Shown here: piece by piece, positions 1,643-49,437 of the stretch
Numbering within the stretch: the stretch's first letter is position 1
How the letters are laid out: the number at the start of each line of letters is the position of its first letter
Virus record (IMG/VR): IMGVR_UViG_2671180747_000017
Direction: 5' to 3' (one strand)
Source of the DNA: a virus
Lineage: Duplodnaviria > Heunggongvirae > Uroviricota > Caudoviricetes
Length of the DNA: 64,000 nucleotides
Notes under the pieces: generated by a model
What the model saw: the letters and a program-made list of their open reading frames with translations, nothing else
Told to the model about the DNA's origin: nothing
Databases searched by the model: none
Translations under genes and position numbers: made by a program

Positions 1643-1675
1643 TTCACGATATTCCATTAATACCATTTCCTGATG

Positions 1676-1700
1676 CCCGGCCATTGTGCCGGGTTTTTTT
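1676..1700 (+). terminator. Rho-independent terminator-like hairpin (CCCGGC-loop-GCCGGG then T7)
   Basis: Read directly: 6-bp GC stem, 6-nt loop, 7 consecutive T; lies between the 421-aa gene stop and the giant gene start. Confidence 0.6.
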
Positions 1701-1711
1701 ATGGAGTCTGT

Positions 1712-10494: not shown

Positions 10495-11421
10495 TCATTG
10501 GCTTACCTCCTTCGGCGGTTCTGGTAGCGGCATCCAGTGGGTTACTTCTTTGAGATGCAGGTCTTCGCCATCACCGTCATCCCAAGTGGGATTGCCATCA
10601 TTAAACCAGTCGCCATATACGCCGACCTGAGTGTTGGGGATGCTTGGTGGGTAGTTGTTTTTAAAGTCAGCTGCTAACACATAGTATTGTCGCTCTCCCA
10701 TTTCTGGCATTCGATCACTACAGCTTATCCAACCATCCGGAGTTACCGGAACTGGCGGAACGGCTGTTTGCTCTCGAACGTCATTAGTCGCTATCGGTTC
10801 TGCTGCCAACTGACTGGCATATTTGTTAATGGTAACGATAAGCTCTTGCTCAGCCTCATCCAGACAATCACCGATACCTCGCCTGTCACCGTCAAAATCA
10901 TCGAAATCGGCACGAATCTTGGCAACCTTCTGGATTGCGGACAACACCTCACTAGGAATTACCGGATAGTTGGTTGACGTTTCCGCGATTTCCCGAAAAT
11001 TATTGGTTGACGAATTCTTGTTTTCCCGAAAGTTTCCGGACTGAAGCATGGCGGCGCGGCAGGCATTCCAGCCTCTTACCTCTGCAATAGCGGCAACCGC
11101 ATCAACCGCGTACATGCTAAGAGGATTAGGCATTGGTTTTTCTTCCGGTACTACTGGTGCTGGAGGGGCGGCGTAAATGCCCTCTATCACTAAATGTTTG
11201 CGCTCAAAATCATCTGGCTCTCGATGATATACGTAACTCCAATCACCAAGGTTATCATTGCGCCTGCAACGGAAACCTATCGGCTCGGCTTCCAGCGCTG
11301 CCAGAGCAATTCGTGCCAGTTCTTCCGCTTCTTCTGCTGGCAGTACAACGTTGCTACCAGGTCCGTATGTTTCGCGCCACTGCTTGATTGTCAGTAGTCG
11401 CTCTTTGGTAATAGTGATCAT
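10495..11421 (-). CDS. DUF551-like prophage protein
   Basis: ORF track; C-terminal YYVLA...GVYGDWFNDG...THWMPLPEPP resembles the DUF551 module common in lambdoid early-left regions. Confidence 0.65.
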   Translation of the reverse strand: MITITKERLLTIKQWRETYGPGSNVVLPAEEAEELARIALAALEAEPIGFRCRRNDNLGDWSYVYHREPDDFERKHLVIEGIYAAPPAPVVPEEKPMPNPLSMYAVDAVAAIAEVRGWNACRAAMLQSGNFRENKNSSTNNFREIAETSTNYPVIPSEVLSAIQKVAKIRADFDDFDGDRRGIGDCLDEAEQELIVTINKYASQLAAEPIATNDVREQTAVPPVPVTPDGWISCSDRMPEMGERQYYVLAADFKNNYPPSIPNTQVGVYGDWFNDGNPTWDDGDGEDLHLKEVTHWMPLPEPPKEVSQ

Positions 11422-11933
11422 GCCGCGTTTCCTTCTTTCTTATTAACAATTACACCGTCATATATTTCATTAAGGTGCCCTCTCAACTCCATGCGCCTTA
11501 ATGCAGATAACATGTAATCGCATTCAACCTGCTTATTCCCAATAAAAGGTTTATCTTCAGGGTTACCCCAACAGCAATTCCCCTTGGGCCATCCATGTAC
11601 TTTCCGTACTCTTCCGTTAACAACGTGAAGTAATCCCCAGCCAGGTGGTAAATCCTCAATTGAAATAATTCCCGGCTCACTAATAAAGAATCGCCAGTCG
11701 CCCATTCCAAGAGACGGATTTTTACGAAAACGCTTTTTTCTATCTGCCAACAAGTCAGCACGAGAACATTTCGCCTCTATCAGGCATGATGCTGAATTTC
11801 TGAATCCCATAGCATCTGGCTGTTCTCCGGTACTGGTTACAGCTATAAAGCGGTCATGAAAACAAACCTTGAACCCGTTGCGCTTAAGGAACTTGTACGC
11901 AATCTGACAGAGTTCGCGGTGTGTTAACGCCAT
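11418..11933 (-). CDS. Hypothetical prophage protein, possible PD-(D/E)xK-like nuclease motif
   Basis: ATG at 11933 with AAGGAG RBS overlapping the upstream gene's stop; motif CLIEAKCSRADL. Confidence 0.55.
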   Translation of the reverse strand: MALTHRELCQIAYKFLKRNGFKVCFHDRFIAVTSTGEQPDAMGFRNSASCLIEAKCSRADLLADRKKRFRKNPSLGMGDWRFFISEPGIISIEDLPPGWGLLHVVNGRVRKVHGWPKGNCCWGNPEDKPFIGNKQVECDYMLSALRRMELRGHLNEIYDGVIVNKKEGNAA

Positions 11934-11934
11934 A

Positions 11935-12885
11935 TCACTCTCCTTTGATGCGAATGCCAGCAAGCCAGTTTCTTATGCCGATATATTCAGCGTTCCGGAA
12001 ACCGCTTTTTACATATATAAATGGCAAGCGAAGATTGTGACCATTGACTGCCAGGTAGTCTTTACAACCCTGTTCGGTGAAACAGCAGGTAACGAATTCA
12101 TCAATATCTTTCACAGCAACGCGCCGCCATTTTTCTGGTGGCTCTCGAAAGTTTTCATGAAGTAGCTCGAGACGACGACTATGGCGTTTATTGGCTTCAT
12201 TGCCATCTTCGTCAACCCAGACAATCCGGTCATGGTCATAATCAGCATCAACAACGATTTCGCGCTTTTGATACACACAAAACATGGGATCTGACGTTAT
12301 TCGATTGTCCTGTGTTCGAATATTTTCACCGATGATGCCAAACGAATCTGGTGCAGATTTTGTCTGCATCTCTTCGATACGTTCAGCCATCGCAGCACAC
12401 TCTTCAAAGTTGCTTAATGCTTTTCGCTCCCATTCGGCGCATTGTTTTTCCAGTTCTGCTATGCGCTTACTTCCATCCGCGATTACTCCCTCGTAATATT
12501 CACGCTGCTCGTTGAGTTTTGATTTTGCTGTTTCAAGCTCAACGCGCAGCTTCCCTACCGTAAGCGCAATATCCTCGTTCTCCTGGTCGCGGCGTTTGAT
12601 GTATTGCTGGTTTCTTTCCCGTTCATCCAGCAGTGCCAGCACGGTAGCCGGATTGGCTGCGGCGATGAATTCAGCATTGGCCTGCTGTTCCATTTGGAAA
12701 TCTTCATCGAAACCGCTTTCAGGATGTGCTCCTTCAATTCTGCAAATGGGAATATATCCAGCAGCCTCGCGATGAATTAGTGCATCATCACCATCAAATC
12801 GGTTCTCTCCATATTCGAGCGACCACTCACCACGCGTTGCTTTTTCTGCCTTTTCACGCAGTACCTGATAGTTAATCTCGCTCAT
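11935..12885 (-). CDS. Ead/Ea22-like prophage protein
   Basis: Contains ANAEFIAAANPATVLALLDE, which I recognise from Ea22-like proteins; central coiled-coil; start refined to ATG 12885. Confidence 0.7.
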   Translation of the reverse strand: MSEINYQVLREKAEKATRGEWSLEYGENRFDGDDALIHREAAGYIPICRIEGAHPESGFDEDFQMEQQANAEFIAAANPATVLALLDERERNQQYIKRRDQENEDIALTVGKLRVELETAKSKLNEQREYYEGVIADGSKRIAELEKQCAEWERKALSNFEECAAMAERIEEMQTKSAPDSFGIIGENIRTQDNRITSDPMFCVYQKREIVVDADYDHDRIVWVDEDGNEANKRHSRRLELLHENFREPPEKWRRVAVKDIDEFVTCCFTEQGCKDYLAVNGHNLRLPFIYVKSGFRNAEYIGIRNWLAGIRIKGE

Positions 12886-13156
12886 TTTTCTCTTCGCTCC
12901 GGTATACAAGAATTACAACGTCACCTCTGCTAATTACGCGAGCTGGATCTCCTGGCTCCATGCTGTCAATCCCGAAGGCTTCGGAAAACGCATTCATTGC
13001 CTTCTGGCGTTGATCCTGCTTACGGCATTTATTCCATTTTTTCAGTAACAACAGCGATAGCCACCGCCCGGCGCAGAACATAATGTAAAAATAACCAAGA
13101 AGCGCCAGACCTGTGTTGAGGGCCGTATCGATCGTTATAGTGGTGTCTATGCTCAC
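12872..13156 (-). CDS. Small hydrophobic (membrane) prophage protein
   Basis: ORF track; hydrophobic segment GLALLGYFYIMFCAGRWLSLLLL; translationally coupled to neighbours. Confidence 0.5.
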   Translation of the reverse strand: MSIDTTITIDTALNTGLALLGYFYIMFCAGRWLSLLLLKKWNKCRKQDQRQKAMNAFSEAFGIDSMEPGDPARVISRGDVVILVYRSEEKNERD

Positions 13157-13374
13157 TTCACACCTCTCTGTTTGTTGATAAGTTCAATATCCTGCTGGCA
13201 ACTGGCGCAAGTTCGGCATCCGCGAACAGCCTGGCGTCGCCGCTCATCTATCGGATCGCCACACTCGCAACAATGAGTAGCAGATGGGGCATTACTTTCG
13301 GATTTGTATTTTTGCAGGGAGAGATTGCGCTGCAATTCTTCGATTTCAGCGGCATTGTCGATGATATCTGCCAT
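13153..13374 (-). CDS. TraR/DksA-family C4 zinc-finger protein
   Basis: CCECGDPIDERRRQAVRGCRTCASCQ four-Cys motif; 73 aa, typical size and position for phage TraR-like proteins. Confidence 0.8.
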   Translation of the reverse strand: MADIIDNAAEIEELQRNLSLQKYKSESNAPSATHCCECGDPIDERRRQAVRGCRTCASCQQDIELINKQRGVK

Positions 13375-13421
13375 TTTCCTTTCCTTCAGGCATGAAAAAA
13401 GGAGCCGAAGCTCCTTTGGTA

Positions 13422-14045
13422 TCAGAATTCAAATTGTCTTGCTCTTAGTTGCGCTAGCATACTTCTGGCCCTATGCACCATATAGTTGGCGGGATCAAGT
13501 TTTGCTGCTTCGCGGAGCAATGTGTCGCGAGTCCGGTTGGTTATATGACGAGTCTCGTAGGCCAGATCAAACAGTTTCCCGTAGTAATCAGAATTCAGTT
13601 CTCTCATGACGGGGTATAGCTGCTTACTGAGTTGTTGTGCTTTTTCCATCCAGAGTTGAACGTAGCAGAGCAGGATGATGTCTTCTGCTGTGAATTGCTG
13701 CTCAGTTTGTACTGGCTGAATGTTGCGAAGTTTCTTTTCGCACTCGATGAAGTATCGGCGTATCTGGCGGCCTTTTTCGTTACGTTCAACCATCGCAAGC
13801 TCTTTGGCTGTGTCGAGGGTGAGGTGGTAATCCTTGCGGCGGCGGCCTGGAGTTTTCGCCAAATTTGGCGAAAATAGAATGTAGTCTAAATTTTCTACGA
13901 ATCCATACTCGTTTAGCTTGGCCCGTATCCAGTTAGAAAAATCTTTACCTACCTCTAAAAATCCATGCAAATCACGCGCGTTCACCAGAAGCGTAGGTTC
14001 ATTTGAGATTGTACCTTCAAACACAGGGATGAGTTGAGTGGTCAT
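13422..14045 (-). CDS. Phage antirepressor, AntA-type N-terminal domain
   Basis: Start refined to ATG 14045 (MTTQLIPVF...) with GGAGG RBS; N-terminal region matches AntA/AntB-type antirepressors. Confidence 0.75.
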   Translation of the reverse strand: MTTQLIPVFEGTISNEPTLLVNARDLHGFLEVGKDFSNWIRAKLNEYGFVENLDYILFSPNLAKTPGRRRKDYHLTLDTAKELAMVERNEKGRQIRRYFIECEKKLRNIQPVQTEQQFTAEDIILLCYVQLWMEKAQQLSKQLYPVMRELNSDYYGKLFDLAYETRHITNRTRDTLLREAAKLDPANYMVHRARSMLAQLRARQFEF

Positions 14046-14294
14046 GATGACCTCCTTTGGCTTTTTTCGAGAAATGCCACCACAAAATGTGGTGCCGGGA
14101 GGCTCGAAACGGCCCAAAAGATACCGCGGACTTATTCCCCTTGCGGGTGTTGTATTCGTCGCCCTCCCGACATTGATCGGGGATGTGACCGCACACTGTG
14201 CTATCACTGAATAACAGGCATAAAAAATCCAACACTGACGGGGTTGGTTTAATCCGCTTTTGGGAGGTTTTCGAGGCCTCGGCGCGGAGTATAG

Positions 14295-14582
14295 TCAGTA
14301 TTGGACGCAGTCGTCAACCATCGCCGTTTCTTTGGCTGTGTCGAGGGTGAGGTGGTAATCCTTGCGGTTGTGACCGCCTCTACCAGATGTTTGCTTTCCC
14401 AAATTGGAAAGCAAAATATAGTCTTGATTTTCAATGAATTCGTATTCTGAAATGCGATTTGTAATCCATGCCGCAAACACCTTTTTCACGCCTAAAAAAG
14501 CATGCAGATCGCGGGCATTGCAGAGTAGGGCTGTTTCGTTGTCGATAGTGCCGTTGAATACGGGGATGAGTTGATTAGCCAT
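14295..14582 (-). pseudogene. Truncated paralog of the antirepressor (N-terminal domain only)
   Basis: MANQLIPVFNGTIDNETALL... closely parallels the 13422-14045 protein then ends at ...MVDDCVQY; flanking DNA is a partial duplicate of 13790-14290. Confidence 0.5.
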
Positions 14583-14909
14583 AATTATGACTCCTGACGT
14601 TTTAGTATTGACTGCCACCTTAGTGGGGTGGCGGGCTTCAACTACCGCGTCAGACGGCGGAGCGTATTTCCCGAAAGGGTATTGTATTAGGCTCTCTCGA
14701 CCCGCCATTGATATGGCGATACCTGTAAACAGGCATAAAAAAGCCGCAAAGCTATCGGGTGCGGTTGACCGCTGACGTTGTAGTGCAGTCAGTATGCGAT
14801 AGCTCTGGCAGATTTGTCAAATCGTGCAGTAACATCCTTTTCTTCCTTGCCATTTCTCAATGATGACAAAGGGTGGATTCGGATTGGTATTGGGACAAAA
14901 GTGAGACAC

Positions 14910-17595: not shown

Positions 17596-18622
17596 TTATA
17601 TTTTTTCGATCTCGACCAGATTAGTGTGCTGCGGGTTTCCCTTCGCCAGTGGTGAAGGGCGCAGAGTGGTTAGCGTATTCACACAGCCGCCATGGTCGAT
17701 TTTATCGCCAGACATATTGGCCTCGTGCCAGGCTCCCTGGCCCATAGCGCTAACTCCAGGGAGAATACGTGGTGTTACTTTGGCTGGTAGCCGAACTTCG
17801 CCACGATGGTTAAACACCCGCACCATATCGCCGTTGGCAATCCCACGTTTCTGCGCATCTATAGGGTTGATCCACACCTCCTGACGGCAGGCAGCCTTCA
17901 GGAGATCAATATTGCCGTAGGTCGAGTGAGTACGGGATTTGTAATGGAAACCAAACAGTTGCAGTGGGAAGGTTCTACGTTCAGGGGAGTCCCAGCCTTC
18001 AAAGGTAGAGGCATAAACTGGCAGTGGGCTTATCACTTCATCTTTTTCCAGTTCCCAGGTACGGGCAATTTCCGCCAGCTTGCTGGAATAAATTTCAATC
18101 TTACCGGAAGGTGTTTTAAGTGGATTTGCCTCGGGGTCGTCACGAAATGCTTTGTAGGCGACAAAATGACCATTGGGATCTTTACGCTTATAGATACCCA
18201 TTTTTTTCAGTTCGTCGTAAGACGGTAACGCCGGATCTTTGGCAAGCATTTTGGCGTACAGATGTTGTAACCATTGTTCCTGCGTGCGACCTTCAGTGAA
18301 CTTTTGATAGACGTCAGGTCCAAGACGTTTCGCGACTTCACTCAGGATCCAGTAAATCGGTTTGCGTTCGAATTTTTCGCTGGTGACAGGCTGGAGGAAA
18401 ATGAGATATCCCATGTTACCGGCGTAGTCGTTAGGAATAATATCTTCCTGCTCAACGGTCATCAGGTCTGGCAGCAGAATGTCGGCATATTTTGCCGATG
18501 AGGTCATAAAGTTTTCGATGACCACAATCATTTCGCATTTCGATTCGTCCTGCAGAATTTCATGCGTTTTGTTGATGTCAGAATGCTGATTAACGAGGGT
18601 ATTTCCCGCGTAGTTCCAGATG
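17596..18622 (-). pseudogene. ynfE: ynfE C-terminal fragment (distal part of the disrupted gene)
   Basis: Paralogous to ynfF C-terminal half; the ynfE-derived reading frame begins at the junction (...SIWNYAGNTL) and the track ORF N-terminus is island-derived. Confidence 0.85.
18612..18622. repeat. attL core direct repeat AGTTCCAGATG
   Basis: Identical 11-mer at both ynfE breakpoints. Confidence 0.8.
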
Positions 18623-18687
18623 GACTCCATTGTCAGACGGATGGATGGACTTGAAGTAGTTGACTCAATGCTACTTAAGGTCCTGAT

Positions 18688-20271
18688 ATGACTGACATTA
18701 ACCATGATAATACTGTATATCCATCCAGTTCTTTCTCTGGGTCTCCCTATCTGTATCAGCAAGTCTGCACCTCAAGTCCTGACACAAGGCTGACACAAAT
18801 CAATCTACTCAGCGTAGCTAAGCCTCAGTTAGTCCGTAGAGCCAATGGTCGATATACTATCCGCTTCAGACTCAAGGGACAGACCATCCCGTTTCTTTCA
18901 GTATCGACCCGAAGCACAGACAGGAGAGTAGCCACAATGCGTCAGAGAGAGCTTGCAGCCACAGCTAAGTCCTTCATGTTGGATAGGCCTGATGTCTCGC
19001 TACAGGAGCTTACGGACCACCTCCGGTCTATGGCTGAGCAGTTCCTGACAGACGCCAGTGATGACTACTGGAATGGACTTGAGGTCGCTACTCTGGTGGA
19101 CGAGAAGTCCAACCTGAAGGAGCTAGCCGCTACGCAAGCCTTGAGTCTGGACCAGCAGAAGGGCATAAGGTTAGCGCTTGAAGTCCTGACCGCAGCACAG
19201 CAGAGGGTAGACACTGGTGATGCCTCTGGTCTGATTAAGCTGATTGATGATAATAACCATACTGATTACTCAACTATAGGCGACTCTACGTCAATTCTGA
19301 AGAATGAGCAGGGGGATAGACCAGCAGTTTTCACACAGGAGCGTCAGCCATCTGTGGTTTTTTCAAGCCTAGTGTCCTCGCTGCTGGCTGAGAAGGTCCA
19401 GACCCTGAAGTCCTCCAGCTACAAGGACCTGTCGTCCTCACTGAATACCGTCTCTCGGTTCTTACCTGAAGACATGGACCTGATGTCCCGCTCTGAGTGG
19501 CTGGCTGTCAGGGACTCCATGCTGGCTGCTGAGGTGAGACCATCGACAATCAACAAGCTGCTGACTAAGGCGAAGATGTGTCTTGATTATGGCCTGATGA
19601 ATGGGCAACTTGAGGGCCGCAACCCTATTGAACGGATGAAGCTGACCAAGGATATCGACTCCAAGCGCAGAGCGTTCACAGACGAGGAGCTGGAGAGACT
19701 TCTGGTCCGTGTTGAGTCTGAGTATCAGTTCACACGACACACGGCTCACACGACCTCTGAGGCCCGTAGATGGGCGTCTCTGGTGTCTGTGGTCACTGGC
19801 GCGAGGTCTGCTGAAGTCTGCCACCTGACTAAACGTGACATTGTCACCTTAGACAACGGTTTAACCTGCATCGACATCAATGAAGATGGGGACGGTAAGT
19901 CTGTGAAGAACAAACATTCAGTCCGACTTGTACCGCTGACCGATGGGGCCTGTGGGTTCGACCTGAAGTCCTTCCTTGAATGGGTAGACACGCAGCCTGA
20001 CGACGGCGGTCCTCTCTTCGGGATGACTCCGAGCGCCTACTCTAGCTGGTTTAACTCTAGGGTCCTGACTGAGGCACTGGGAGACGCTGAGAACGTTTCT
20101 CTCCATAGTCTGAGGCATTGGCTGGCGACCCGAATGAAAGAGCGTGGAGTCAATCTGGTGGACGCTCAGGGCATCTTAGGCCATAGCAGTCAGTCAATTA
20201 CGTATGACCTGTACGGGAAAGGACACGCTGTTGGTAGGCTGGCTGAGGTGCTGAAGACAGCTTTACTTTAA
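18688..20271 (+). CDS. int: Tyrosine recombinase / integrase of the island
   Basis: C-terminal HSLRHWLATR and LGHSSQSITYDLYGKGH (H-x-x-R and catalytic Tyr); N-terminal GRYTIRFRLKG arm-binding-like segment; true start uncertain because arm-type repeats lie at 18780-18798. Confidence 0.85.
   Translation: MTDINHDNTVYPSSSFSGSPYLYQQVCTSSPDTRLTQINLLSVAKPQLVRRANGRYTIRFRLKGQTIPFLSVSTRSTDRRVATMRQRELAATAKSFMLDRPDVSLQELTDHLRSMAEQFLTDASDDYWNGLEVATLVDEKSNLKELAATQALSLDQQKGIRLALEVLTAAQQRVDTGDASGLIKLIDDNNHTDYSTIGDSTSILKNEQGDRPAVFTQERQPSVVFSSLVSSLLAEKVQTLKSSSYKDLSSSLNTVSRFLPEDMDLMSRSEWLAVRDSMLAAEVRPSTINKLLTKAKMCLDYGLMNGQLEGRNPIERMKLTKDIDSKRRAFTDEELERLLVRVESEYQFTRHTAHTTSEARRWASLVSVVTGARSAEVCHLTKRDIVTLDNGLTCIDINEDGDGKSVKNKHSVRLVPLTDGACGFDLKSFLEWVDTQPDDGGPLFGMTPSAYSSWFNSRVLTEALGDAENVSLHSLRHWLATRMKERGVNLVDAQGILGHSSQSITYDLYGKGHAVGRLAEVLKTALL
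18780..18798. repeat. Two direct TGACACAA arm-type repeats, 11-bp spacing, left end of island
   Basis: TGACACAAGGCTGACACAA read directly; same motif triplicated at the right end. Confidence 0.7.
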
Positions 20272-20348
20272 GTAGGAAGACCCAAGGTGGAGACCATATA
20301 CGGCTTGATGGTTGAGACCTTGGGTCACTGAAGTCTGACTGAAGTTAG

Positions 20349-20376
20349 GGAGGGTGATAATAATCATAATCCCTCC
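20349..20376 (+). terminator. Hairpin downstream of integrase (GGAGGG, 16-nt loop, CCCTCC), no clear U-tract
   Basis: Read directly about 80 bp after the int stop. Confidence 0.25.
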
Positions 20377-20483
20377 TGACTATAGGCCCACTGGTTCGCC
20401 TTCGGCTGTCAGACTCTAAGTCTGTATGTGGTCTTATTTAAACTGGTTCCCTAACTCCAGTACTCCAAATTCCTATGGTCTCC

Positions 20484-20690
20484 TCTTGACATTCCTGTTT
20501 AACTGTGAGTCGCCTCTGGTCTCTCTTTATATATACTTCCTTAATTCCTGAGGCGTCTTTAGTCCTTGACATCCAGTCCAGCCTGTGAGTCACATCCGGT
20601 CCTCCCTCTTTATATATACTTCCTTAATTCCTAGGGTCGCCTTAATCCTTGACATCCAGTCCAGCCTGTGAGTCACATCCTGTCGCGCTA
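20484..20690. repeat. Three tandem direct repeats, period about 80-83 bp, each with TTGACAT...CTGTGAGTC; the first two also carry CTCTTTATATATACTTCCTTAATTCCT
   Basis: TTGACA at 20486, 20566, 20649; CTGTGAGTC at 20503, 20583, 20666; 27-mer at 20523 and 20606. Confidence 0.75.
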
Positions 20691-20713
20691 CTGTATGCAT
20701 CACCAGTGATGGA

Positions 20714-20736
20714 CTTGATTATCACTATAGGGGAAC
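20714..20736 (+). promoter_or_regulatory. T7-group phage RNA polymerase promoter-like site, copy 1 (predicted +1 G at 20730)
   Basis: TCACTATAGGG matches T7 consensus positions -8 to +3 exactly; upstream specificity region (ATTA) differs from T7/T3/K11/SP6; 35 bp upstream of an ORF with AGGAG RBS. Confidence 0.6.
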
Positions 20737-20764
20737 CAACTAATTCAACTACAGGAGATACTCT

Positions 20765-21133
20765 ATGGCACGACCAATCGCAACTCACGACAACACGTTC
20801 ACCAAAGCCTACTTGCAGCAGCACTGCGGGGACCTGCTGTCATTCGATGGTCAGGGCGACCTGAGTGGTTGGCTGGATGATGTCCTTACTGGTGCTGGTC
20901 GCCTGAACGAATCAATGGCAAGCAATACCAAGCCTGTCAGCCCATACTTGATTCTGACCCAACTACTAACGCACGACACATTAACTGTAAGCGCTGTACA
21001 GGAGTCCCTGAGCCGTAAGCGTGTTGCCTTGGGTGAACCTATGGTTTCAACTCGCTACGCTCGCTACGTCTATGCTACCGTCGTCAGCGCCAGTAAATCC
21101 GTCCAGTACCACGCCAGTAAAGCTGGTTCATGA
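20765..21133 (+). CDS. 122-aa protein, first gene downstream of phage-type promoter 1, unknown function
   Basis: ORF track; ACAGGAGATACTCT-ATG gives an AGGAG RBS at good spacing. Confidence 0.65.
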   Translation: MARPIATHDNTFTKAYLQQHCGDLLSFDGQGDLSGWLDDVLTGAGRLNESMASNTKPVSPYLILTQLLTHDTLTVSAVQESLSRKRVALGEPMVSTRYARYVYATVVSASKSVQYHASKAGS

Positions 21134-21142
21134 TTACGGACC

Positions 21143-21165
21143 CTAAACTATCACTATAGGGAGAC
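21143..21165 (+). promoter_or_regulatory. T7-group phage RNA polymerase promoter-like site, copy 2 (predicted +1 G at 21159)
   Basis: TCACTATAGGGAGA matches T7 consensus positions -8 to +6 (14/14); shares TATCACTATAGGG with copy 1; same strand. Confidence 0.65.
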
Positions 21166-21422
21166 CAGCCTCCGCCTCTGAGTCTGATGCGTCAGAACAT
21201 GCGAGCATCTGGTCAACCGACATTAAGTATCTCTCCTAAGTAATCAAGGCATGTGACCGCCTCTGTCAGACCTCGTGTATCGACCTCCAGCTCGTTAGCG
21301 TTCTCGTGTCTTCATTATGATTTGGGTCTATCACCGCTCACCATCTGGAAGTCCTTACAGCTCGTCCTGACATGCGGTCTCACCTTTATATGGCTGGAAG
21401 AGACCTCCTCTGTCAGACGCTA

Positions 21423-21470
21423 TCTAACCAACCCAGAAAACGGGTTTGTTAAAAAGATTAACATGGGTCT
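21423..21470. repeat. Direct repeat copy 1, about 47 bp (TCTAACCAACCCAGAAAACGGGTTTGTTAAAAAGATTAACATGGGTCT)
   Basis: Near-identical second copy at 21619-21665; contains short hairpin AACCC-AGAAAAC-GGGTT. Confidence 0.7.
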
Positions 21471-21490
21471 CCACCTTCATGAGGACCGCT

Positions 21491-21504
21491 CCGGAAATTT
21501 CCGG
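21491..21504. repeat. 14-bp perfect palindrome CCGGAAATTTCCGG between the two 47-bp repeats
   Basis: Read directly. Confidence 0.7.
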
Positions 21505-21618
21505 ACCGTGAACGGGTGGCTCTATCACAGGTCGCGAAAATGGAAACCTGCTTAACGTCCCCAAAACTGAGCAGTCACCATTCTTAACGGGTCCAAATTT
21601 GGGCGCGTTGGCGAGAAG

Positions 21619-21665
21619 TCTAACCAACCCAGAAAACGGGTTTGTTAAAAAAGTTAACATGGTCT
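21619..21665. repeat. Direct repeat copy 2, about 47 bp
   Basis: About 45 of 48 positions identical to copy 1; 196 bp spacing. Confidence 0.7.
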
Positions 21666-21793
21666 TCACACGACCTCATTACCTCAAGTCTTTCTGTATG
21701 TCTCCTGTTGCCTGTGAGTCTCCCTATCGTTGGGGGCTTGAGTAGGCTTTCAGGGTGTGACTTCAGGAGGCATAACAAAAGGAGTACAACGAT

Positions 21794-22552
21794 ATGTCAA
21801 CTCAACCCTTAATGAAGCATGAAGTAGTTCTTCCTGTCATCGTTGACGGCTATCACTGGGCCTGTAATCAGGACCGTATGTGGAACCTGAACGAGCTACA
21901 TAAAGAGCTTGAGCTTCCATCTGCTAAGGAGCCGGGTCAGTGGCGTTCTAGCGTCAGGACGCTTCTTGACCAAGATGCAAATCTGCATGTTGCTCATGGT
22001 GGTTCGACTCCGGGGACATGGGCTACTGAAGAGGCGGCTATTGCCTATGCGATGTGGGTCTCACCTGATTTCTACCTTAAGGTCATCCGTGCTTTCATCG
22101 CTTTACGTAACGACAAAGTGTCGGAAGCTAAGGCGCTGGCGCAGGACTCCAAGGAACTTAAGGGTCTCAAGCCTATAGCCCGTAACTGGCTGGAAAAGCT
22201 GGATAACCCGAAGCAGGGCCACACCCTGACAGAGTGTCTTAAGAATCTCGACTTCAGGTTAGGTACAAAGCTGGTATCAGCCAAGGCTCTTAATGCCGTA
22301 TTGAAGTCAGGGCGTATAGCTAATCCCTTCTATAGTCGCAAGCTGGACGGTCGAGGACAGCCTGTATTTGACATCTCGTCAGGTGGCTGGATGACCAGCT
22401 TCAATCCTAAGGGTCTGGAGAACGGCTATTACCGTCTTCAGGATAACCACTATAACGGTCAGGAGGGGCTTAAGGTCCTCACCAAGGGTTACGAGTGGCT
22501 TAAGTCCAACAAGGTCGAGCTGGTTCGTCTGTGCGCTAAGGGAGGACTCTAA
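21794..22552 (+). CDS. KilA-N domain protein (DNA-binding), 252 aa
   Basis: AAGGAG RBS; N-terminal ...LHVAHGGSTPGTWATEEAAIAYAMWVSPDFYLKV resembles KilA-N/APSES-type domain. Confidence 0.7.
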   Translation: MSTQPLMKHEVVLPVIVDGYHWACNQDRMWNLNELHKELELPSAKEPGQWRSSVRTLLDQDANLHVAHGGSTPGTWATEEAAIAYAMWVSPDFYLKVIRAFIALRNDKVSEAKALAQDSKELKGLKPIARNWLEKLDNPKQGHTLTECLKNLDFRLGTKLVSAKALNAVLKSGRIANPFYSRKLDGRGQPVFDISSGGWMTSFNPKGLENGYYRLQDNHYNGQEGLKVLTKGYEWLKSNKVELVRLCAKGGL

Positions 22553-22553
22553 G

Positions 22554-22721
22554 ATGATTGACCCGCGCACACCTGAGGGCCGCATGACTCTCCGTTACCG
22601 TGGCTACCGGACTGAAGTCCTCCTCAGAGAGCTTGGTCTAGACCCGGAAGATGAGACCCGCCAGCACCAATCCCGAGACGAGCTGATAGCGCAACTGGTC
22701 GCTATGAAACTGTCTGCCTAA
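22554..22721 (+). CDS. Small 55-aa protein, not in ORF track
   Basis: ATG immediately after the upstream stop (TAAGATG coupling); MIDPRTPEGRMTLRYRGYRTEVLLRELGLDPEDE...; read by eye. Confidence 0.4.
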   Translation: MIDPRTPEGRMTLRYRGYRTEVLLRELGLDPEDETRQHQSRDELIAQLVAMKLSA

Positions 22722-22817
22722 TTTTAAAACCTTTTGAGATGACCGATGCGGGGAGACCCGTAGGCGCTACTGCGTCTGCGATACCGATAGTCTCAACTCT
22801 CAAGAGGAGAATTACCT

Positions 22818-23309
22818 ATGATGTTCAACAACAACAACTGGAAGCTGTCAGTCACCGACATCAACCTTTATGAAAACACTGTGAGTCTGGACGGTCAGTC
22901 CTATCCGTTGTCGCTCGCTATCAAGACCCTGATTCCGGGCTACCTGTCAGGACTGCCGTCTACCAGCCGTGAGTCTATGGAGTTACTGGAAGCTCTGGCT
23001 GAAGCTGGTGTAGCTATTGGCAACTTCTTCAGTAATGACCTGATGACCGCCTATGGTCGCCGCCAGCAGAACAAGCGAGCTGAGGCTGAGCGTATCGCTA
23101 AAGAGCAGCGCATTCAGGCCGAGCGCATGCGTGAAGAGAACATGACTGATGCAGAGTGGCAGAAAGAGCTACAGCGCCGCGAACAGGTCAAAGCTGAACG
23201 CCGGACCTATGGTGAGAACCTCCGCAGTGCTACCCATTCCGCTGGTCGCTCCCGTGCCGCTATTGTCGCTGACCTTGAGTCAGGCGGTAACTGGCTGGAC
23301 AGCTTATAA
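22818..23309 (+). CDS. 163-aa protein with basic coiled-coil C-terminal half, unknown function
   Basis: ORF track; GAGGAG RBS; Arg/Glu/Gln-rich heptad-like segment AEAERIAKEQRIQAERMREE. Confidence 0.6.
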   Translation: MMFNNNNWKLSVTDINLYENTVSLDGQSYPLSLAIKTLIPGYLSGLPSTSRESMELLEALAEAGVAIGNFFSNDLMTAYGRRQQNKRAEAERIAKEQRIQAERMREENMTDAEWQKELQRREQVKAERRTYGENLRSATHSAGRSRAAIVADLESGGNWLDSL

Positions 23310-23393
23310 GACACACAGTCCCTGACCCGATGTTAGGGACTCCTCAGTTTTGAGGACTCACAGTATTTAAACTAATTTAGGAGATTGATTATT

Positions 23394-24380
23394 ATGACGA
23401 TTAAAGACGCTTTCCAGTTTGGCATTGAGCCAGTACGCATCACCGATACCGACAACATTCAGGTCAATGAAGGTCTGCCGACTAACGCTGACCCGCAGGT
23501 CTACGCCCTCCAGTTAGCTAAGACGGTTAAGGCTATGCTGAACGGTGTACTTAAGGACGCTCAAGAGAACATCCCGTTCCCTGTAGAAGTCCTGCCGACC
23601 CGTAACAGCTTACCGACCCCAATCATTGCCCACACTCTGACTGACCGCTCTGTGGTCGTTCCTGTCCGTGGTGGCAAGCGACCTGAAGTCGTGACCGTTC
23701 CGTCTGGACAAGAAATCGTGGTCGAACCAATCGAGCAGGCTATTCTCATCTCTGAGCAGACCAAGCTCTGGGACGCCAAGTCATCCACCGGATTCACTCA
23801 GGGCACACTTCAGCAGGACGCTATGAACATCTGTGAGAATGTGGTCCGTACCATCAACGCTCGCATGGTCGACGTTCTGGAATCCTCTAAGCTGCTGAAG
23901 ACCGTAGAGCTTCCTGTCCTGACTGGTAGCCTGACCGCTAAGGCAGACGCTATCATGGACGCTCTGTATGAGAACACAGAGTCTTCTTTCGGTTCTGAGG
24001 TGTCTGACTACGGTATTATCGCTCATGAGAGCCAACTGAAAGCACTGTCCCGTCTGGCTGCTAAGCAAGGCTTCTCCGGTGAAGACGCTATCGTCGATAT
24101 GCTGGGAACAGACATCGCCTACTACAACGGTGAAGACAAGGGTGTATTCATGCTGGCTAAACGCTTCACGGCTCTGAGCTTCGGTTGCTTCCGTCACGAT
24201 GGCGAGAATATTACGGTCGTCCTTTCACGTGATGGCGACTCTCAGTCCCACGACTTGGAAATCCTCGGTAAAGTGTTCGTTGTCGCTGAAGCTGCTACGA
24301 CCATCAAGATGGGCACTGGCTCAGCTACTGCCGTCCTGCCTGTAGTCAAACGCCTGAAGTTCACCAAGACCGAAGCGTAA
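23394..24380 (+). CDS. 328-aa protein, unknown function (largest island cargo gene)
   Basis: ATG 23394 with TAGGAG RBS (track start 23385 is TTG); no motif I can assign. Confidence 0.65.
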   Translation: MTIKDAFQFGIEPVRITDTDNIQVNEGLPTNADPQVYALQLAKTVKAMLNGVLKDAQENIPFPVEVLPTRNSLPTPIIAHTLTDRSVVVPVRGGKRPEVVTVPSGQEIVVEPIEQAILISEQTKLWDAKSSTGFTQGTLQQDAMNICENVVRTINARMVDVLESSKLLKTVELPVLTGSLTAKADAIMDALYENTESSFGSEVSDYGIIAHESQLKALSRLAAKQGFSGEDAIVDMLGTDIAYYNGEDKGVFMLAKRFTALSFGCFRHDGENITVVLSRDGDSQSHDLEILGKVFVVAEAATTIKMGTGSATAVLPVVKRLKFTKTEA

Positions 24381-24385
24381 GACCA

Positions 24386-24625
24386 ATGGGTAAGAGCATT
24401 AGTAAAGGCTTCAGGTCCATCGCCAAGGGCCTGACAGGTGGTGGTGGGACTCAAGGTGGGGCTTCGGTCCCGCCTCCTGTAGCTCCTCCTGTAGCTCCTC
24501 CAGATGACGCTCAGCAAGCTGTAGTCGATACCCAAGGTCAGGAGACCGAGGGAGGTAAGACCATGAGCAGAGGTAAGTCTGGACTGAATATCAGCAGGAC
24601 TTCAGGTGGTGGCCTGTCACTGTGA
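24386..24625 (+). CDS. 79-aa Gly/Pro-rich basic protein
   Basis: ORF track; GGGGTQGGASVPPPVAPPVAPP low-complexity; follows 328-aa gene by 5 nt. Confidence 0.45.
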   Translation: MGKSISKGFRSIAKGLTGGGGTQGGASVPPPVAPPVAPPDDAQQAVVDTQGQETEGGKTMSRGKSGLNISRTSGGGLSL

Positions 24626-24863
24626 TTAAGACATCTATACAGCCTGTGGAGGGTGGACGATATCAAGCAACAATCTGGATGACACGCAGAGTCTATAAGC
24701 GGCTATGCTGGTCACTGGCTGAAGCTGAACAGTGGGTGAGACGTAAAGTGCCTACCGTTCAATCGTTCCAATCATCATGATAACTATGGTCTGGACCAAT
24801 GGTCTGGACCTTTGTTTTGTACTAGTTATCTAGTGCAGTAGTACAATAGACGAAGGAGGCTTT

Positions 24864-25019
24864 ATGTCTATGACTTCCGCAGACCTAAGGTCCCTCCTGA
24901 CTCTGGTCTATAAACTCGTGTTCCTCTCTGTGGGTCTCTATATGGTCCTCTCCGGTCGACTCGGTGTGAATGTATTCGACACTCTGTCTAAGGCTGTGGG
25001 TGGGCTTCTGGGGGCTTAG
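24864..25019 (+). CDS. 51-aa hydrophobic membrane peptide
   Basis: Strongest RBS in the island (GAAGGAGG, 6 nt before ATG); one predicted TM helix LLTLVYKLVFLSVGLYMVLSG; read by eye, not in ORF track. Confidence 0.5.
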   Translation: MSMTSADLRSLLTLVYKLVFLSVGLYMVLSGRLGVNVFDTLSKAVGGLLGA

Positions 25020-25169
25020 GTTTGGACTCACAGTGGGACCGATGGTTTCTGACAGAAAAATGTGAATGACCATCTAATACATTAAGCCAGCAGACTTCCC
25101 CCATAGCCCGCCTCAAGTCCAGACCGAGGCCACCGGGGGGCTGACCAGCCGTCTAGACATCCCGTCTAA

Positions 25170-25200
25170 TGACACAAGGCTGACACAAAGCCTGACACAA
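25170..25200. repeat. Three direct TGACACAA arm-type repeats (11-12 bp spacing), right end of island
   Basis: TGACACAAGGCTGACACAAAGCCTGACACAA read directly. Confidence 0.7.
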
Positions 25201-25257
25201 AGTCCTTGACTCAATGCAGGACCTCAGGCCTACTAAGGGTCCGCTTCAAGTCCTTGA

Positions 25258-25268
25258 AGTTCCAGATG
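25258..25268. repeat. attR core direct repeat AGTTCCAGATG
   Basis: Identical to 18612-18622. Confidence 0.8.
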
Positions 25269-26668
25269 AACTTAATGGGCACATCCAGTTTATCTTTGCC
25301 GCGGACGCCGTCGCGGATTGCCGTCATTTGCGGACCATGATCGATAGCATCTGTCCAGCTGAAGCAGGAGATTGACATTTTGACCGGATTATCCAGCACC
25401 GGCAGGCGTTCTATGGTAATGGTATAGGTCGATTCACGCGCGCCACTATTTCCGCCGCTGATGCCGACATTGCCCGTCAAAATAGGTAACATAGCAATAG
25501 CGCGTGCAGTCAGTTCGCCGTTTGCCTGGCGTTGCGGCCCCCAGCCCTGGCAGATATAAGCGGGTTTTGCTGTGCCAATTTCACGCGCCAGTTTGATGAT
25601 ACGGTCTACCGGGATACCGGTAATTTGCGAAGCCCACTGCGGCGTTTTCGCTGTGTTATCATCACCTTCACCAAGAATATAGGCTTTATAGTGACTATTT
25701 TTGGGTGCATCTGCGGGTAAGGTTTTTTCGTCATAGCCGACGCAGTATTTATCGAGAAAAGGTTGATCAACGAGATTTTCGTTAATCAATACCCAGGCAA
25801 TACCCGCAACCAGCGCGGCATCGGTGCCCGGGCGAATAGGGAGCCATTCATCTTCACGACCAGCAGCCGTATCGGTATATCGCGGATCGATAGCAATCAT
25901 TTTGGCGTTCGATTTCTCGCGCGCTTTTTCAAGAAGATAAGTGATGCCACCGCCGCTCATGCGGGTTTCTGCCGGGTTGTTACCAAACATCACGACCAGC
26001 TTGCTGTTTTCAATATCCGTGGTGCTGTTGCCATCATTACTGCCGTAGGTGTAGGGCATGGCACAGGAAATTTGCGCGGTGCTGTAGGAGCCATACTGAT
26101 TGAGTGAACCGCCGTAGCAGTTCATCAGGCGTTTGACCGCCGAGGCTGATGGCGAAGAGCGGGTCATATTGCCGCCAACGATCCCCGAAGAGTACTGAAT
26201 ATATACAGCCTCATTGCCATATTGTTCGACGGTTTTCTTCAGGCTACTGGCGATAGTATCCAGGGCTTCATCCCAGCTAATCCGTTCGAATTTGCCTTCG
26301 CCGCGTTTGCCCACGCGTTTCATTGGGTAATTCAAGCGATCGGGATGATTAATACGCCGACGGATGGATCGACCACGCAAACAGGCGCGTACTTGATGAT
26401 TGCCATACTCGTCGCTGCCGGTGTTGTCAGTTTCCACCCAGGTGACTTCATTATCTTTAACATGTAGACGAAGTGCACAGCGGCTACCACAGTTGACGGA
26501 ACAGGCACCCCAGATCACTTTTTCGCTGGCCTGTTGTACCGCTGCCGCTGCACTGCGCAGGGTGAACGGTAAAGAAAAACCGCCTGCAGCCAGCGCCAGA
26601 GAACCTATCGCGGTTGATTTAACGAGTGTTCTGCGGCTGATGCCCACCATTCGGTCATTTTTGGACAT
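25258..26668 (-). pseudogene. ynfE: ynfE N-terminal fragment (promoter-proximal part of the disrupted gene)
   Basis: Tat signal GISRRTLVKSTAIG, CSVNCGSRC motif; colinear with ynfF to ...DVPIKFIWN, then island-derived residues and stop. Confidence 0.85.
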
Positions 26669-32028: not shown

Positions 32029-33309
32029 TTAATTTTTCATTGATTCGTTATGGGGCATGGTTGGGGCAAACTCGCTTAACTGTGTATTTAACAAAGCTAC
32101 CTGTGCATTATTGTTTTCAGACATCCATTTTCCGTATACCTGAAATACCATTTGCGCATCTGCATGGCCCATCTGGTTTGCTATAAATGCCGGGTTAGCA
32201 CCAGCTGTCAGCGACCAGCAGGCATAAGTATGTCTCGACTGATATGATTTTCGATGGCGGAGTCCGGCACGTTTTATCGCTGCGTCCCACATCTGCCTTA
32301 TTGAGTCAACGGTAAAATGGTCACCATAATTTTTTACTCTCGCTGACACTTCAGGTTGAAAAACAAAGGTGCATTTTTGTTTTTCTGTTCTGCCATACTC
32401 TCTGAGGTGAACATCAATGATATGCTCTTTGCTCAGTCTCGTTAATGTCATCTGACTCCGGAGAGCGTCGATTGCTGGCTTAATAAGATGAATGGCCCGA
32501 TTGGTTCCCGCCTGTGTTTTTGGTACCGTGAAACGGTCTTTTGCTAAATTTCTCCTGATCATCATTGTTCCATTTTTCAGATCTATGTCCTCCCATCCAA
32601 GTGCACACAGCTCACCAGGGCGAACGCCAGTATAAACAGAAACACACCATAAATTTTTTGCTTGCTGATTTCTGCACGCATCGATAAGACGGATAAATTC
32701 CTCCCGCGAAAGAGGATCCGGAATGGTTCTTGATTCCTTTAATGGCGAGATCCCCTTAAACGGATTATCTGCCAGGTAACCGTTATCAACACCAAACTGG
32801 AACACGGCGTTAAGATTTGTCATGTAATTATTTACAGTTACAGCCGATCTCCCTGGTTGTGTAACAATATAGTTACTTTTGGGGATCTGGTATCCAGTCA
32901 GTAGCTCTTTACGAACCTCCAGTAATTTTTCTTTATTAATCGATGAGGCAAGATTTTTTTCACCGATTATGCTCAGGATATTTTTGATGACGGCACGGTA
33001 TGTGTTGAGTGATGTTTTGGCGACTTCAGTTTCTTTCAGTGCCAGAAATTTTTCAGCCAGTTCTTTTATGGTTAAATCTTGTCGGGCCTCACCAAATTTT
33101 TCCAGATTGCGTGAGGAGGGAAACTGTTTTGCATAGTCGAAAACACCAGTTTTTATTGCGTAACAAACAGAGGAGCGTAGTTCACCTGCAACGCGCCTGT
33201 TTTTTGCTGTGTCAGGAACCCCCAGATTTTCCCTGACTCTTACGCCTTTATAAACAAACCAGATACGTAATTTCCCTCCATGGTTTTCCACGCCTGTCGG
33301 ATATTTCAT
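32029..33309 (-). CDS. int: Prophage integrase (lambda Int family tyrosine recombinase)
   Basis: N-terminal arm-binding-like MKYPTGVENHGGKLRIWFVYKG; C-terminal SRHTYACW and VYGKW catalytic motifs. Confidence 0.9.
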   Translation of the reverse strand: MKYPTGVENHGGKLRIWFVYKGVRVRENLGVPDTAKNRRVAGELRSSVCYAIKTGVFDYAKQFPSSRNLEKFGEARQDLTIKELAEKFLALKETEVAKTSLNTYRAVIKNILSIIGEKNLASSINKEKLLEVRKELLTGYQIPKSNYIVTQPGRSAVTVNNYMTNLNAVFQFGVDNGYLADNPFKGISPLKESRTIPDPLSREEFIRLIDACRNQQAKNLWCVSVYTGVRPGELCALGWEDIDLKNGTMMIRRNLAKDRFTVPKTQAGTNRAIHLIKPAIDALRSQMTLTRLSKEHIIDVHLREYGRTEKQKCTFVFQPEVSARVKNYGDHFTVDSIRQMWDAAIKRAGLRHRKSYQSRHTYACWSLTAGANPAFIANQMGHADAQMVFQVYGKWMSENNNAQVALLNTQLSEFAPTMPHNESMKN

Positions 33310-33343
33310 TTCAACTTCTCTCATTAGTTAGTGTGGCTTTTAG

Positions 33344-47169: not shown

Positions 47170-48193
<1,024 letters not shown>

Positions 48194-48554
48194 GGTAATA
48201 TTAAATCGGAACATTTACATCGCGGAATGTAAAATTTAAATAAAAAGGACTCTTCCATGAGCCAAAATTCCTGAAATCTTAAGGGTAAGATAAAAGGTCT
48301 TAATCAGAATGACACGTTTTATTAATAAATAAAGCTATTCTTTCATTGCTGTGTTTTTCTTTACAAAAGTAATCCTTGCTATGGGTGGTTAATCATGCGT
48401 TAATGGTGTTCTGGTTTGTTACAAATTTATCTGAAGCAGTCATTGTTATAATTTTATTATTTGTACCTCTTGAGATTTCCTTGTTGGTTTTTCTCTCTGA
48501 TATTTTTTTCGGACCATTCTGCCCAAGGGCTAATTTCTTCAAAAGGTAATAATT

Positions 48555-48767
48555 ATGTCTAACAAAATGACTGGTTTAGTGAAATGGTTTAACCCTGAAA
48601 AAGGTTTTGGTTTCATCACGCCGAAAGATGGCAGCAAAGATGTGTTTGTCCATTTCTCAGCAATTCAGAGCAACGATTTCAAAACATTAACTGAGAATCA
48701 GGAAGTTGAATTTGGTATTGAGAACGGACCTAAAGGTCCTGCCGCTGTTCATGTAGTGGCGCTTTGA
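48555..48767 (+). CDS. cspI: Cold-shock protein (CspA family)
   Basis: [37 protein letters not shown]...; Qin-like position after the lysis genes. Confidence 0.8.
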
Positions 48768-48973
48768 GGTAGACAATATTACAAACCATATTCACTTTAG
48801 ATGCCCGTGTTGTCATGGTTCCCAGTATAGAACATCATCTTTTGATGTTTCTGACATGAATCCTTTCGGGGCAAAATGTATCTTTTGTAAATCAATGATG
48901 ATTACATTTGATAATATTTCACAATACTTAAATGCCAGCCGTCTGTCGTTGGATTTAAAAAAGTGAAAATGAA

Positions 48974-48995
48974 GGCTCCTTCGGGAGCTTTTTTG
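48974..48995 (+). terminator. Rho-independent terminator (GGCTCC-TTCG-GGAGC plus T-run)
   Basis: Read directly downstream of cspI. Confidence 0.6.
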
Positions 48996-49038
48996 CTTGG
49001 TGTCTATTCGATGGATACTCACATACTACGGTAACATC

Positions 49039-49269
49039 ATGAAAAAAATCATAGTTTTTTTTAACTCTGAACCAGCAGTGGTAGTGCCAGCGATGACTGG
49101 AGTTAACACCATCATGCGTGAATATCCAAATGGCGAAAAAACACACCTTACTGTAATGGCCGCAGGGTTTCCATCTCTGACCGGAGATCATAAAGTCATT
49201 TATGTAGCCGCGGATCGACATGTCACTTCAGAAGAAATTCTGGAAGCAGCAATAAGGCTCTTGAGTTGA
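49039..49269 (+). CDS. Hypothetical small protein (76 aa)
   Basis: Internal start MKKIIVFFNSEPAVV of the track ORF. Confidence 0.45.
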   Translation: MKKIIVFFNSEPAVVVPAMTGVNTIMREYPNGEKTHLTVMAAGFPSLTGDHKVIYVAADRHVTSEEILEAAIRLLS

Positions 49270-49437
49270 TTTGATGCTATTGCATTGATAATTCAGGAAA
49301 ATTCTCTTTGTCTGTTTGTGTAAAATTTAGACTATCGTATGTTGATTATTGCGATGTTTCATCTTATCTTTTACACGTTTGCACCATATAATCGACTTAC
49401 TGTGTAACTGGAAAGTCATAACAGACTAAAAGAGGAA

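Follow-up and report, generated by a model that had tools for sequence, protein, structure and literature searches.

Kayfunavirus-type promoters on a small capsid-encoding island in ynfE point to a probable satellite of virulent T7-like phages

The 64,000-nucleotide stretch of DNA analysed here (IMG/VR record IMGVR_UViG_2671180747_000017, hereafter the window) contains a 6.65-kb integrative island of E. coli that splits the gene ynfE and carries, on one strand, two promoters of the kind read by T7-group phage RNA polymerases. T7-like phages are the classic example of strictly virulent coliphages, and they are common candidates for phage therapy, among them the K1F-type phages against E. coli K1. 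No RNA polymerase gene was found in the island, either among its open reading frames (ORFs) or by profile searches. The locus raises the question of which polymerase would read such promoters in a bacterial chromosome, and to what end. As judged from sequence, both sites are very probably real targets of a Kayfunavirus-type (K1F/EcoDS1-like) RNA polymerase, and the island as a whole is probably an integrative satellite that would be induced by this polymerase at both promoters.

The exact 11-mer TCACTATAGGG occurs only twice in the whole 64 kb, at 20722-20732 and 21151-21161, both times on the plus strand and between genes. The second copy extends to TCACTATAGGGAGA at 21151-21164. These 11/11 and 14/14 matches to a T7-type promoter core had been reported in the initial annotation, and they proved exact on recheck, as did the TA that precedes TCACTATAGGG at both copies; the spacing between the copies measures 429 bp and not the 440 bp given there. 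With two mismatches allowed, TCACTATAGGG gave 13 matches in the window versus 10 expected, and because there was no enrichment, only the two exact copies are meaningful. When the window was scored with a weight matrix derived from 22 distinct Kayfunavirus-type promoter 23-mers, copy 2 reached 34.2 bits (phage median 34.25) and copy 1 reached 23.4 bits, the next-best site on either strand scoring 9.9 bits.

Copy 1 (-17 to +6, positions 20713-20735, plus strand) reads ACTTGATTATCACTATAGGGGAA, with a predicted +1 at G20730; it is of the right-end-promoter type, but with G at -13 and T at -11. Copy 2 (-17 to +6, positions 21142-21164, plus strand) reads CCTAAACTATCACTATAGGGAGA, with a predicted +1 at G21159; it is of the consensus strong-promoter type and agrees with the Kayfunavirus consensus at 23/23 positions. 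The surroundings are those described initially. From the predicted +1 of copy 1 there are 35 nt to the start codon (ATG at 20765) of a 122-aa gene with a ribosome-binding site of the AGGAG type. Copy 2 begins 9 nt past the stop codon of this gene and is followed by a repeat-bearing stretch of 630 nt without a convincing ORF and then by a KilA-N gene (21794-22552).

A search of region 19500-23500 against 50,697 phage genomes (megablast and blastn) returned a single 36-bp match, to Escherichia phage phiYIO1-1, which rules out that the island is known phage DNA. Phage phiYIO1-1 is T7-like, has a genome of 40.5 kb and encodes an endosialidase tailspike, and is therefore K1F-like. The 17-mer cTAAACTATCACTATAGG is found in 9 promoters of its genome and 4-6 times per genome in many IMG/VR viral contigs of ~39-40 kb. 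The segment 21143-21167, corresponding to copy 2, is identical (25/25) to the promoter located between the scaffold and major capsid genes in ~18 phage contigs. Copy 1 matches at 20/22 positions (short-query BLAST) the promoter that lies close to the right end of the genome in EcoDS1, CR44b, ST31, Vec13, LM33_P1 and many other phages and that is annotated as "promoter" in two phage records; EcoDS1 belongs to the genus Kayfunavirus. It had been proposed that the cognate polymerase comes from a T7-like phage other than T7, T3, K11 or SP6. The cTAAACTATCACTATAGG counts and the 25/25 and 20/22 identities bear this out and identify the group as Kayfunavirus.

The specificity bases at -12 to -9 are ACTA in copy 2, as in all sampled phage promoters fitting the family consensus. 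In copy 1 they are ATTA, the T at -11 being absent from the phage set, and the match of specificity bases thus holds for copy 2 only. The island promoters share with the promoters of Kayfunavirus (Studiervirinae, T7 group) the 23-bp layout from -17 to +6, with the core TCACTATAGGGAGA; they differ from them in lying in a bacterial chromosome, on an element without a polymerase gene. Another phage group was considered for copy 1. In IMG/VR, only one promoter of the type TGATTATCACTATAGG was found, which follows the polymerase gene in Pectobacterium phage PPWS4, and this group was dropped as cognate because multiple copies of TGATTATCACTATAGG were present in no phage.

The island covers positions 18612-25272, with ynfE fragments on both sides. 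It is bounded by AGTTCCAGATG(R)ACT at 18612 and 25258, with 6646 bp between the core starts: the attL core AGTTCCAGATGGACT (18612-18626) lies inside ynfE at the left end and the attR core AGTTCCAGATGAACT (25258-25272) at the right end. The att core also flanks the island at 10 other loci, Leclercia included. A tyrosine integrase is encoded at 18688-20271 on the plus strand (Pfam Phage_integrase, 1.8e-13; phrog_1, 3.3e-42); its start codon is uncertain, the equivalent of the start of the RefSeq homologue lying at ~18647. With this integrase, a 15-nt att core and nine ORFs, and without most virion, replication and lysis genes, the island has the make-up of a phage satellite. All its genes are on the plus strand, downstream of or around the two promoters.

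One of these genes (23385-24380, plus strand) encodes a 331-aa HK97-fold major capsid protein specific to the island family. No Pfam, PHROG, PADLOC or PDB sequence match was found for this protein, nor any BLASTP similarity to the phage capsid protein or tblastn match in the 50,697 phage genomes. Its identity was resolved by structure prediction only. The AlphaFold model, built with distant relatives from a profile-free search of 1.8 billion representatives, had a pLDDT of 83 and a pTM of 0.78. When compared with the PDB by Foldseek, it matched phage capsid proteins and encapsulins with probability 1.0 and E values down to 1.5e-09. Directly upstream, the gene at 22818-23309 (plus strand) encodes a 163-aa core protein that is conserved together with the capsid gene across the family. 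Its moderately confident AlphaFold model (pLDDT 69) shows a small N-terminal domain, long helices at residues 73-107 and 111-141 and a disordered C-terminus, a scaffold-like organization. Downstream of the capsid gene, a 79-aa protein (24386-24625, plus strand) is a homologue of gp7.3, the virion assembly/adsorption protein of the T7 group (phrog_1320, 1.8e-11), and has 40% identity to gp33 of phiYIO1-1 (E 6e-15).

The right end of the island also resembles phage DNA. The block at 25020-25168 (plus strand) is homologous to the phage concatemer junction, in which ~65 nt at the end of the unique right-end sequence are followed by the first ~100 nt of the terminal repeat. With an nhmmer profile of 11 phage junctions, the block of the window gave an E value of 1.7e-05. 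The same profile matched 12 of 14 islands; each match lay at the corresponding position immediately inside attR and on the strand of the promoters, with E values from 5e-16 (L006) to 0.014. The phage end CATC/TCACAGTTCAAG...CCCCATAGGCCC aligns to CATCTAATACATTAAG...CCCCCATAGCCC in the island. At the other border, immediately inside attL, the 16-mer GTCTCCCTATCTGTAT (18741-18756, plus strand) is a motif that the island has in common with the right end of the terminal repeat of the phages, and it is a candidate RNA polymerase pause/junction signal. It occurs on the plus strand in every island, and in phages L002 (203), L066 and L108 the terminal repeat has the decamer CTATCTGTAT at its right end. 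In the two integrase types, of which one is found in islands beside tRNA-Gly (e.g. L007), GTCTCCCTATCTGTAT is located at non-homologous positions and in different reading frames. Since frames and positions differ between unrelated integrases, it is conserved as DNA and not as protein.

In the excised form, the junction block and the CTATCTGTAT motif would flank attP, with the block ~310 nt 5' of the motif. The homology of the block and the shared CTATCTGTAT together suggest a packaging signal matching that of the helper. The class II heptamer of T7 is ATCTGTT, whereas the island and Kayfunavirus sequence is ATCTGTA. According to a preprint that cites Lyakhov et al. 1997, the T7 concatemer junction has a class II pause/termination signal, which is short and sequence-specific and is located at the end of the terminal repeat (bioRxiv 10.64898/2026.02.12.705533). 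The island and Kayfunavirus share CTATCTGTAT where T7 has this signal, which makes a pausing role a candidate function here.

Related DNA was found in 309 of 5426 complete E. coli genomes (~6%), always in the chromosome. The annotated relatives appear as a small element splitting ynfE and composed of an integrase, one or two variable genes and two conserved "hypothetical" genes (~163 and ~330 aa). Relatives of the capsid gene occur in eight genera beyond Escherichia, namely Leclercia, Citrobacter, Enterobacter, Buttiauxella, Kluyvera, Shimwellia, Proteus and Rouxiella. The family core consists of the genes of a 55-aa protein, the 163-aa protein and the capsid protein; the gp7.3 homologue, the 122-aa gene and the KilA-N gene are variable. 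The IS-free islands (IS, insertion sequence) measure 6496-6764 bp (n=9) and differ in gene content, and this tight size despite a mosaic content suggests a packaging size constraint.

Every island for which the upstream region was available carries 2-5 ACTATAGG motifs on the strand of the capsid gene, placed where the variable slots begin or end. Over 78 kb of island sequence, ACTATAGG was found 36 times on the plus strand and 3 times on the minus strand, versus 2.4 expected per strand. The initial estimate that the motifs are beyond chance is upheld by this bias and by the 25-mer identical to phage promoters, and in every related island the motifs are intergenic and not part of a conserved coding sequence. 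The promoter core is constant among islands and the -17 to -9 region varies; copy 1 is identical in islands L001, L003, L004 and L011. Frequently, the motifs form tandem pairs, 27-29 bp apart and of differing specificity, such as tataccctcACTATAGGga followed by ctaaactatcACTATAGGgg. A second type, AAATCTTATACCCTCACTATAGG, which is the first of a tandem pair, is identical (23/23) to 4-5 sites per genome in Cronobacter phage GW1, also classified in Kayfunavirus, and Escherichia phage Ro103C3lw. Sites of the AAATCTTATACCCTCACTATAGG type with 23/23 identity are also present, again 4-5 per genome, in Shigella phages SFP20/21B and in Enterobacter phages, and islands of Proteus, Kluyvera and others have T3-, K11- or SP6-like promoter variants. 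BLAST breakpoints between island modules fall at promoters (in the window at ~21139-21151 and 21255, exactly at copy 2), and the promoters seem to be recombination joints between exchangeable gene modules.

The satellite model is built on the identity of the promoters to phage promoters, the junction homology, the capsid fold, and the conservation and strand bias seen in the relatives. According to this model, a virulent Kayfunavirus would infect the cell and make its RNA polymerase early, and the polymerase would initiate at G20730 and G21159. The co-oriented operon (122-aa gene, KilA-N, 55-aa, scaffold-like, capsid and gp7.3-homologue genes) would then be transcribed as a whole, and the polymerase would continue through to the right end and its junction-like block. 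Excision would be the work of the integrase, and the joining of attR to attL would bring 25020-25168 upstream of the CTATCTGTAT motif at 18741-18756, giving a copy of the concatemer junction of the phage, a possible substrate for the helper terminase. Packaging might follow one of two routes. In the first, one unit would enter a small capsid made of the satellite capsid protein, together with the portal and tail of the helper; scaled roughly by volume, a 40-kb T=7 head corresponds to ~6-10 kb at T=3. In the second, multimers of about six units (~40 kb) would enter helper-sized heads. The narrow size range of the islands fits both options. Extended to the relatives, and held with only a slight preference over its contrary, the proposal is that these islands form an undescribed, widespread Enterobacterales family of 6.5-6.8-kb capsid-encoding satellites of virulent T7-like phages. 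They would sense infection via helper-polymerase promoters, often in multi-specificity arrays, and their junction mimic would span attP and be contiguous only after excision.

Several points weigh against the satellite model. Transcription, excision, replication, packaging and phage interference are steps that we infer. Searches of JGI metagenomes (two patterns) and of IMG/VR did not recover the attP junction, a result that is not negative proof. Replication is not explained by the model; family searches revealed no replication gene among the island proteins, and there is no clear AT-rich origin 3' of the promoters. Neither terminase, portal nor excisionase genes were recognised in the island. 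As the integrase gene sits 5' of both promoters, these do not explain its expression in the integrated state. The changes at -13 and -11 of copy 1 fall on positions that are invariant in the phage set and, since they differ from all sampled phage promoters, its strength and specificity are uncertain; copy 1 may be a weak promoter or the target of a different polymerase. In the window, the homology to the phage junction is modest (~60% identity at the E value given above), and the exact phage end TCTCACAG reads TCTAATAC in the island. Finally, in islands of the tRNA-Gly type the CTATCTGTAT motif is ~1 kb from the junction block, a gap because of which the idea of a split terminal repeat may not generalise.

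The alternative that survives best, and that we nonetheless regard as unlikely, is a phage-triggered defence island. The promoters would then be an infection sensor for toxic or interfering genes (KilA-N, capsid-like, gp7.3 mimic), the junction mimic would be a terminase decoy, and the island would spread only by integrase-mediated or other horizontal transfer. This would agree with the failure to find an excised form in JGI metagenomes and IMG/VR and with the match of KilA-N to a PADLOC candidate family. It would also agree with the variable slots between integrase and core, which hold KilA-N, HNH endonuclease, DUF4145 and other genes, like defence hotspots. However, a complete HK97-fold capsid protein with a scaffold-like partner forms the conserved core of the family, the island length is tightly constrained, and the junction homologue is co-oriented and located beside att. 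Because of these three features, packaging is a simpler explanation than defence. The two are moreover not mutually exclusive, as known satellites interfere with their helpers.

Clearly less probable still is that the island is the decayed remnant of an integrated temperate T7-like phage, its promoters and junction being functionless leftovers. That the element combines an integrase with T7-group promoters, terminal-repeat-like DNA and a homologue of gp7.3 could be read in this way. Yet no RNA polymerase, DNA polymerase, portal, tail or terminase gene of a T7-like prophage, or remnant of one, was found in 18612-25272, and the capsid protein is unmatched in the phage genomes searched. The architecture and size are constant over hundreds of genomes, nine genera and two integrase types, and the promoters stay perfect while their flanks diverge and vary in step with phage promoter types. 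Chance or coding-driven matches without promoter function, for which the lack of enrichment of the two-mismatch 11-mer could be cited, are effectively refuted by the comparative data, namely the conservation in divergent islands and the 36:3 strand bias, beside the exact 11-mer found twice and the 25-mer shared without mismatch with phage promoters, all intergenic and on the same strand.

The satellite model can be compared with known systems. The capsid-forming PICIs (cf-PICIs) are about twice the size of the island, encode all parts of a head module (portal, protease, connectors, small terminase) and use temperate helpers. They are integrative satellites that encode their own HK97-fold capsid protein and do not remodel helper capsids (bioRxiv 10.1101/2022.09.08.507074). 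The island is similarly an integrative element with its own HK97-fold capsid protein. In contrast, the head genes found in it are those of the capsid protein and the scaffold-like protein, plus the gp7.3 homologue; no other head-gene family was matched, a complete head module as in cf-PICIs is not present, and the presumed helper is a virulent T7-like phage. The PICMIs are integrase islands of ~6 kb whose helpers are virulent Vibrio phages and whose DNA is packaged as a concatemer; they are found in Vibrionaceae beside fis and carry alpA and prim but no capsid genes (PMC10803314). The island resembles them in being a very small integrase island with a presumably virulent helper, concatemer packaging being one option. 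It is not a PICMI, having no AlpA or primase match and having a capsid gene, and it lies neither in Vibrionaceae nor beside fis. Plasmids carrying a T7 promoter-dependent origin and a concatemer junction were reportedly amplified by T7 and packaged as ~40-kb concatemers, in work by Chung and Hinkle from 1990 (J Mol Biol). The island has likewise phage-polymerase promoters and a concatemer junction, and six units of ~6.6 kb would make ~40 kb; unlike these artificial plasmids, it is natural and integrative and has its own capsid gene.

An integrative element interrupting ynfE was listed, uncharacterised, in the TIGER survey (PMC7192596). The literature search yielded PICMIs, cf-PICIs, PLEs and other systems, none of them matching. 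No satellite of T7-like phages and no induction via helper-polymerase promoters was found in a search with thin coverage of subscription journals, so that an earlier description is possible.

If the satellite model is true, promoter mimicry would be a simple means for a mobile element to detect a phage, and one that is hard to evade, because a change in the specificity of the phage polymerase requires a change in all of the phage's own promoters. The tandem promoters of mixed specificity would then appear to record an arms race over polymerase-promoter specificity. At 6.6 kb, the element would count among the smallest elements with a capsid gene that are linked to tailed phages. Such islands might influence the host range of phages and the outcome of phage therapy, and during lytic infections they might carry DNA from one enterobacterium to another.

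The remaining features of the island were also recorded. At 19273 (plus strand), inside the integrase gene, ttactcaACTATAGGcgactctac is a ACTATAGG motif on the promoter strand that is also present in the integrase genes of the distant islands L117 (1162) and L129 (1420); its conservation is probably due to coding constraint. A hairpin, GGAGGGTGATAATAATCATAATCCCTCC, at 20349-20376 (plus strand, -16.2 kcal/mol) is identical at 28/28 positions in phage contigs L066 and L107, where it lies in the right-end region, just upstream of the last small gene. Directly 3' of it, TGACTATAGGC at 20377-20387 (plus strand) is a degenerate promoter-like motif. The equivalent of 20377-20387 in phiYIO1-1 (TGACTATATGGAGA) is on the strand opposite to transcription, and in L066 and L107 the hairpin has the other orientation; the hairpin segment appears to be inverted between related phages. 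Just 5' of promoter copy 1, two tandem 83-bp repeats, each with a TTGACA, occupy 20523-20684 (Tandem Repeats Finder: period 83, 2.0 copies, 91% matches), of which related island L116 has one copy only. Their possible roles include those of iterons, regulator sites or weak host promoters. A convincing sigma-70 promoter was not found in them, the TTGACA being without a usable -10 element, and sigma-70 promoters in the island at large were rejected, such sites and terminators being no commoner than in shuffles. Repeats of TGACACAAAGCC (family D8) at 25170-25202 and 18780-18799 align with repeats in the phage terminal repeat and are likely integrase arm sites.

The 122-aa accessory gene directly 3' of copy 1 (20765-21133, plus strand; phrog_23123, 1.1e-08) has only weak phage homologues and is found in some islands only. 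The untranslated leader that follows copy 2 (21165-21793, plus strand) contains two 44-nt repeats at 21423-21466 and 21619-21662 (family D5, 95% identical). No Rfam match and no AT-rich tract were found in this leader, and a 100-aa ORF within it had no family match; a T7-type origin after copy 2, for which an AT-rich tract was sought, was rejected. On visual inspection, each 44-nt unit might fold into a pair of small neighbouring hairpins (AACCC/GGGTT and TGTTAA/TTAACA). When one unit was folded by computation, the first hairpin appeared and the second did not (-10.3 kcal/mol, z -1.46, not significant). The KilA-N domain protein (21794-22552, plus strand; Pfam KilA-N, 1.3e-09; phrog_129; PADLOC candidate PDC-S22, 5.9e-07) occupies a variable accessory slot in which related islands have other genes. 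The 55-aa core protein (22554-22721, plus strand) was detected by tblastn at 23 of 24 related loci and has no family match. A hairpin with a T-run at 24788-24820 (plus strand), with a 10-bp stem followed by TTTGTTTTGT, is a candidate operon terminator (-16.6 kcal/mol, z-score -3.6).

Some individual relatives deserve mention. In strain 47-1826 (L001, NZ_CP184839, 1-18500), a Mu-like prophage adjoins the island within the ynfE remnant. IS3, IS4 or IS21 insertions are present in several islands (L004, L006 and L009 among the loci noted), and some of them disrupt the capsid gene, as in L004. The distant island L119, whose capsid protein is 35% identical and which uses another integration site, carries taaaccccgACTATAGAgag at 5760 and 9472, one copy before and one after the capsid module; no phage was matched here. 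L116, a 6661-bp Logan contig consisting of the island only, was considered as an excised circle and gave no evidence of one, because its ends carry flanking host sequence and have no terminal overlap. Contig L033 (IMGVR_UViG_3300006565_000265, 6760 bp) has three copies of cacccctCACTATAGGGACAGTTTAGAGG and appears to be a T7-like phage fragment with a promoter type like the second tandem promoter of islands L009 and L010.

Outside the island, a single ORF of 2806 aa with high GC and AT skew covers 1673-10093 (plus strand); its only NCBIfam match is a CLCA_X-family segment at residues 1195-1450. Between this giant ORF and ynfF, several ORFs lie on the minus strand at 10495-14708, where the G+C content is lower (0.47); those of 308, 324 and 261 aa had no NCBIfam match at 1e-05. 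After rspB, a second tyrosine recombinase (32029-33324, minus strand) and an exodeoxyribonuclease VIII (RecE-like) gene (33668-36139, minus strand) are found, suggesting a Rac-like prophage. Further to the right, the G+C content falls to 0.36 at 48001-50000.

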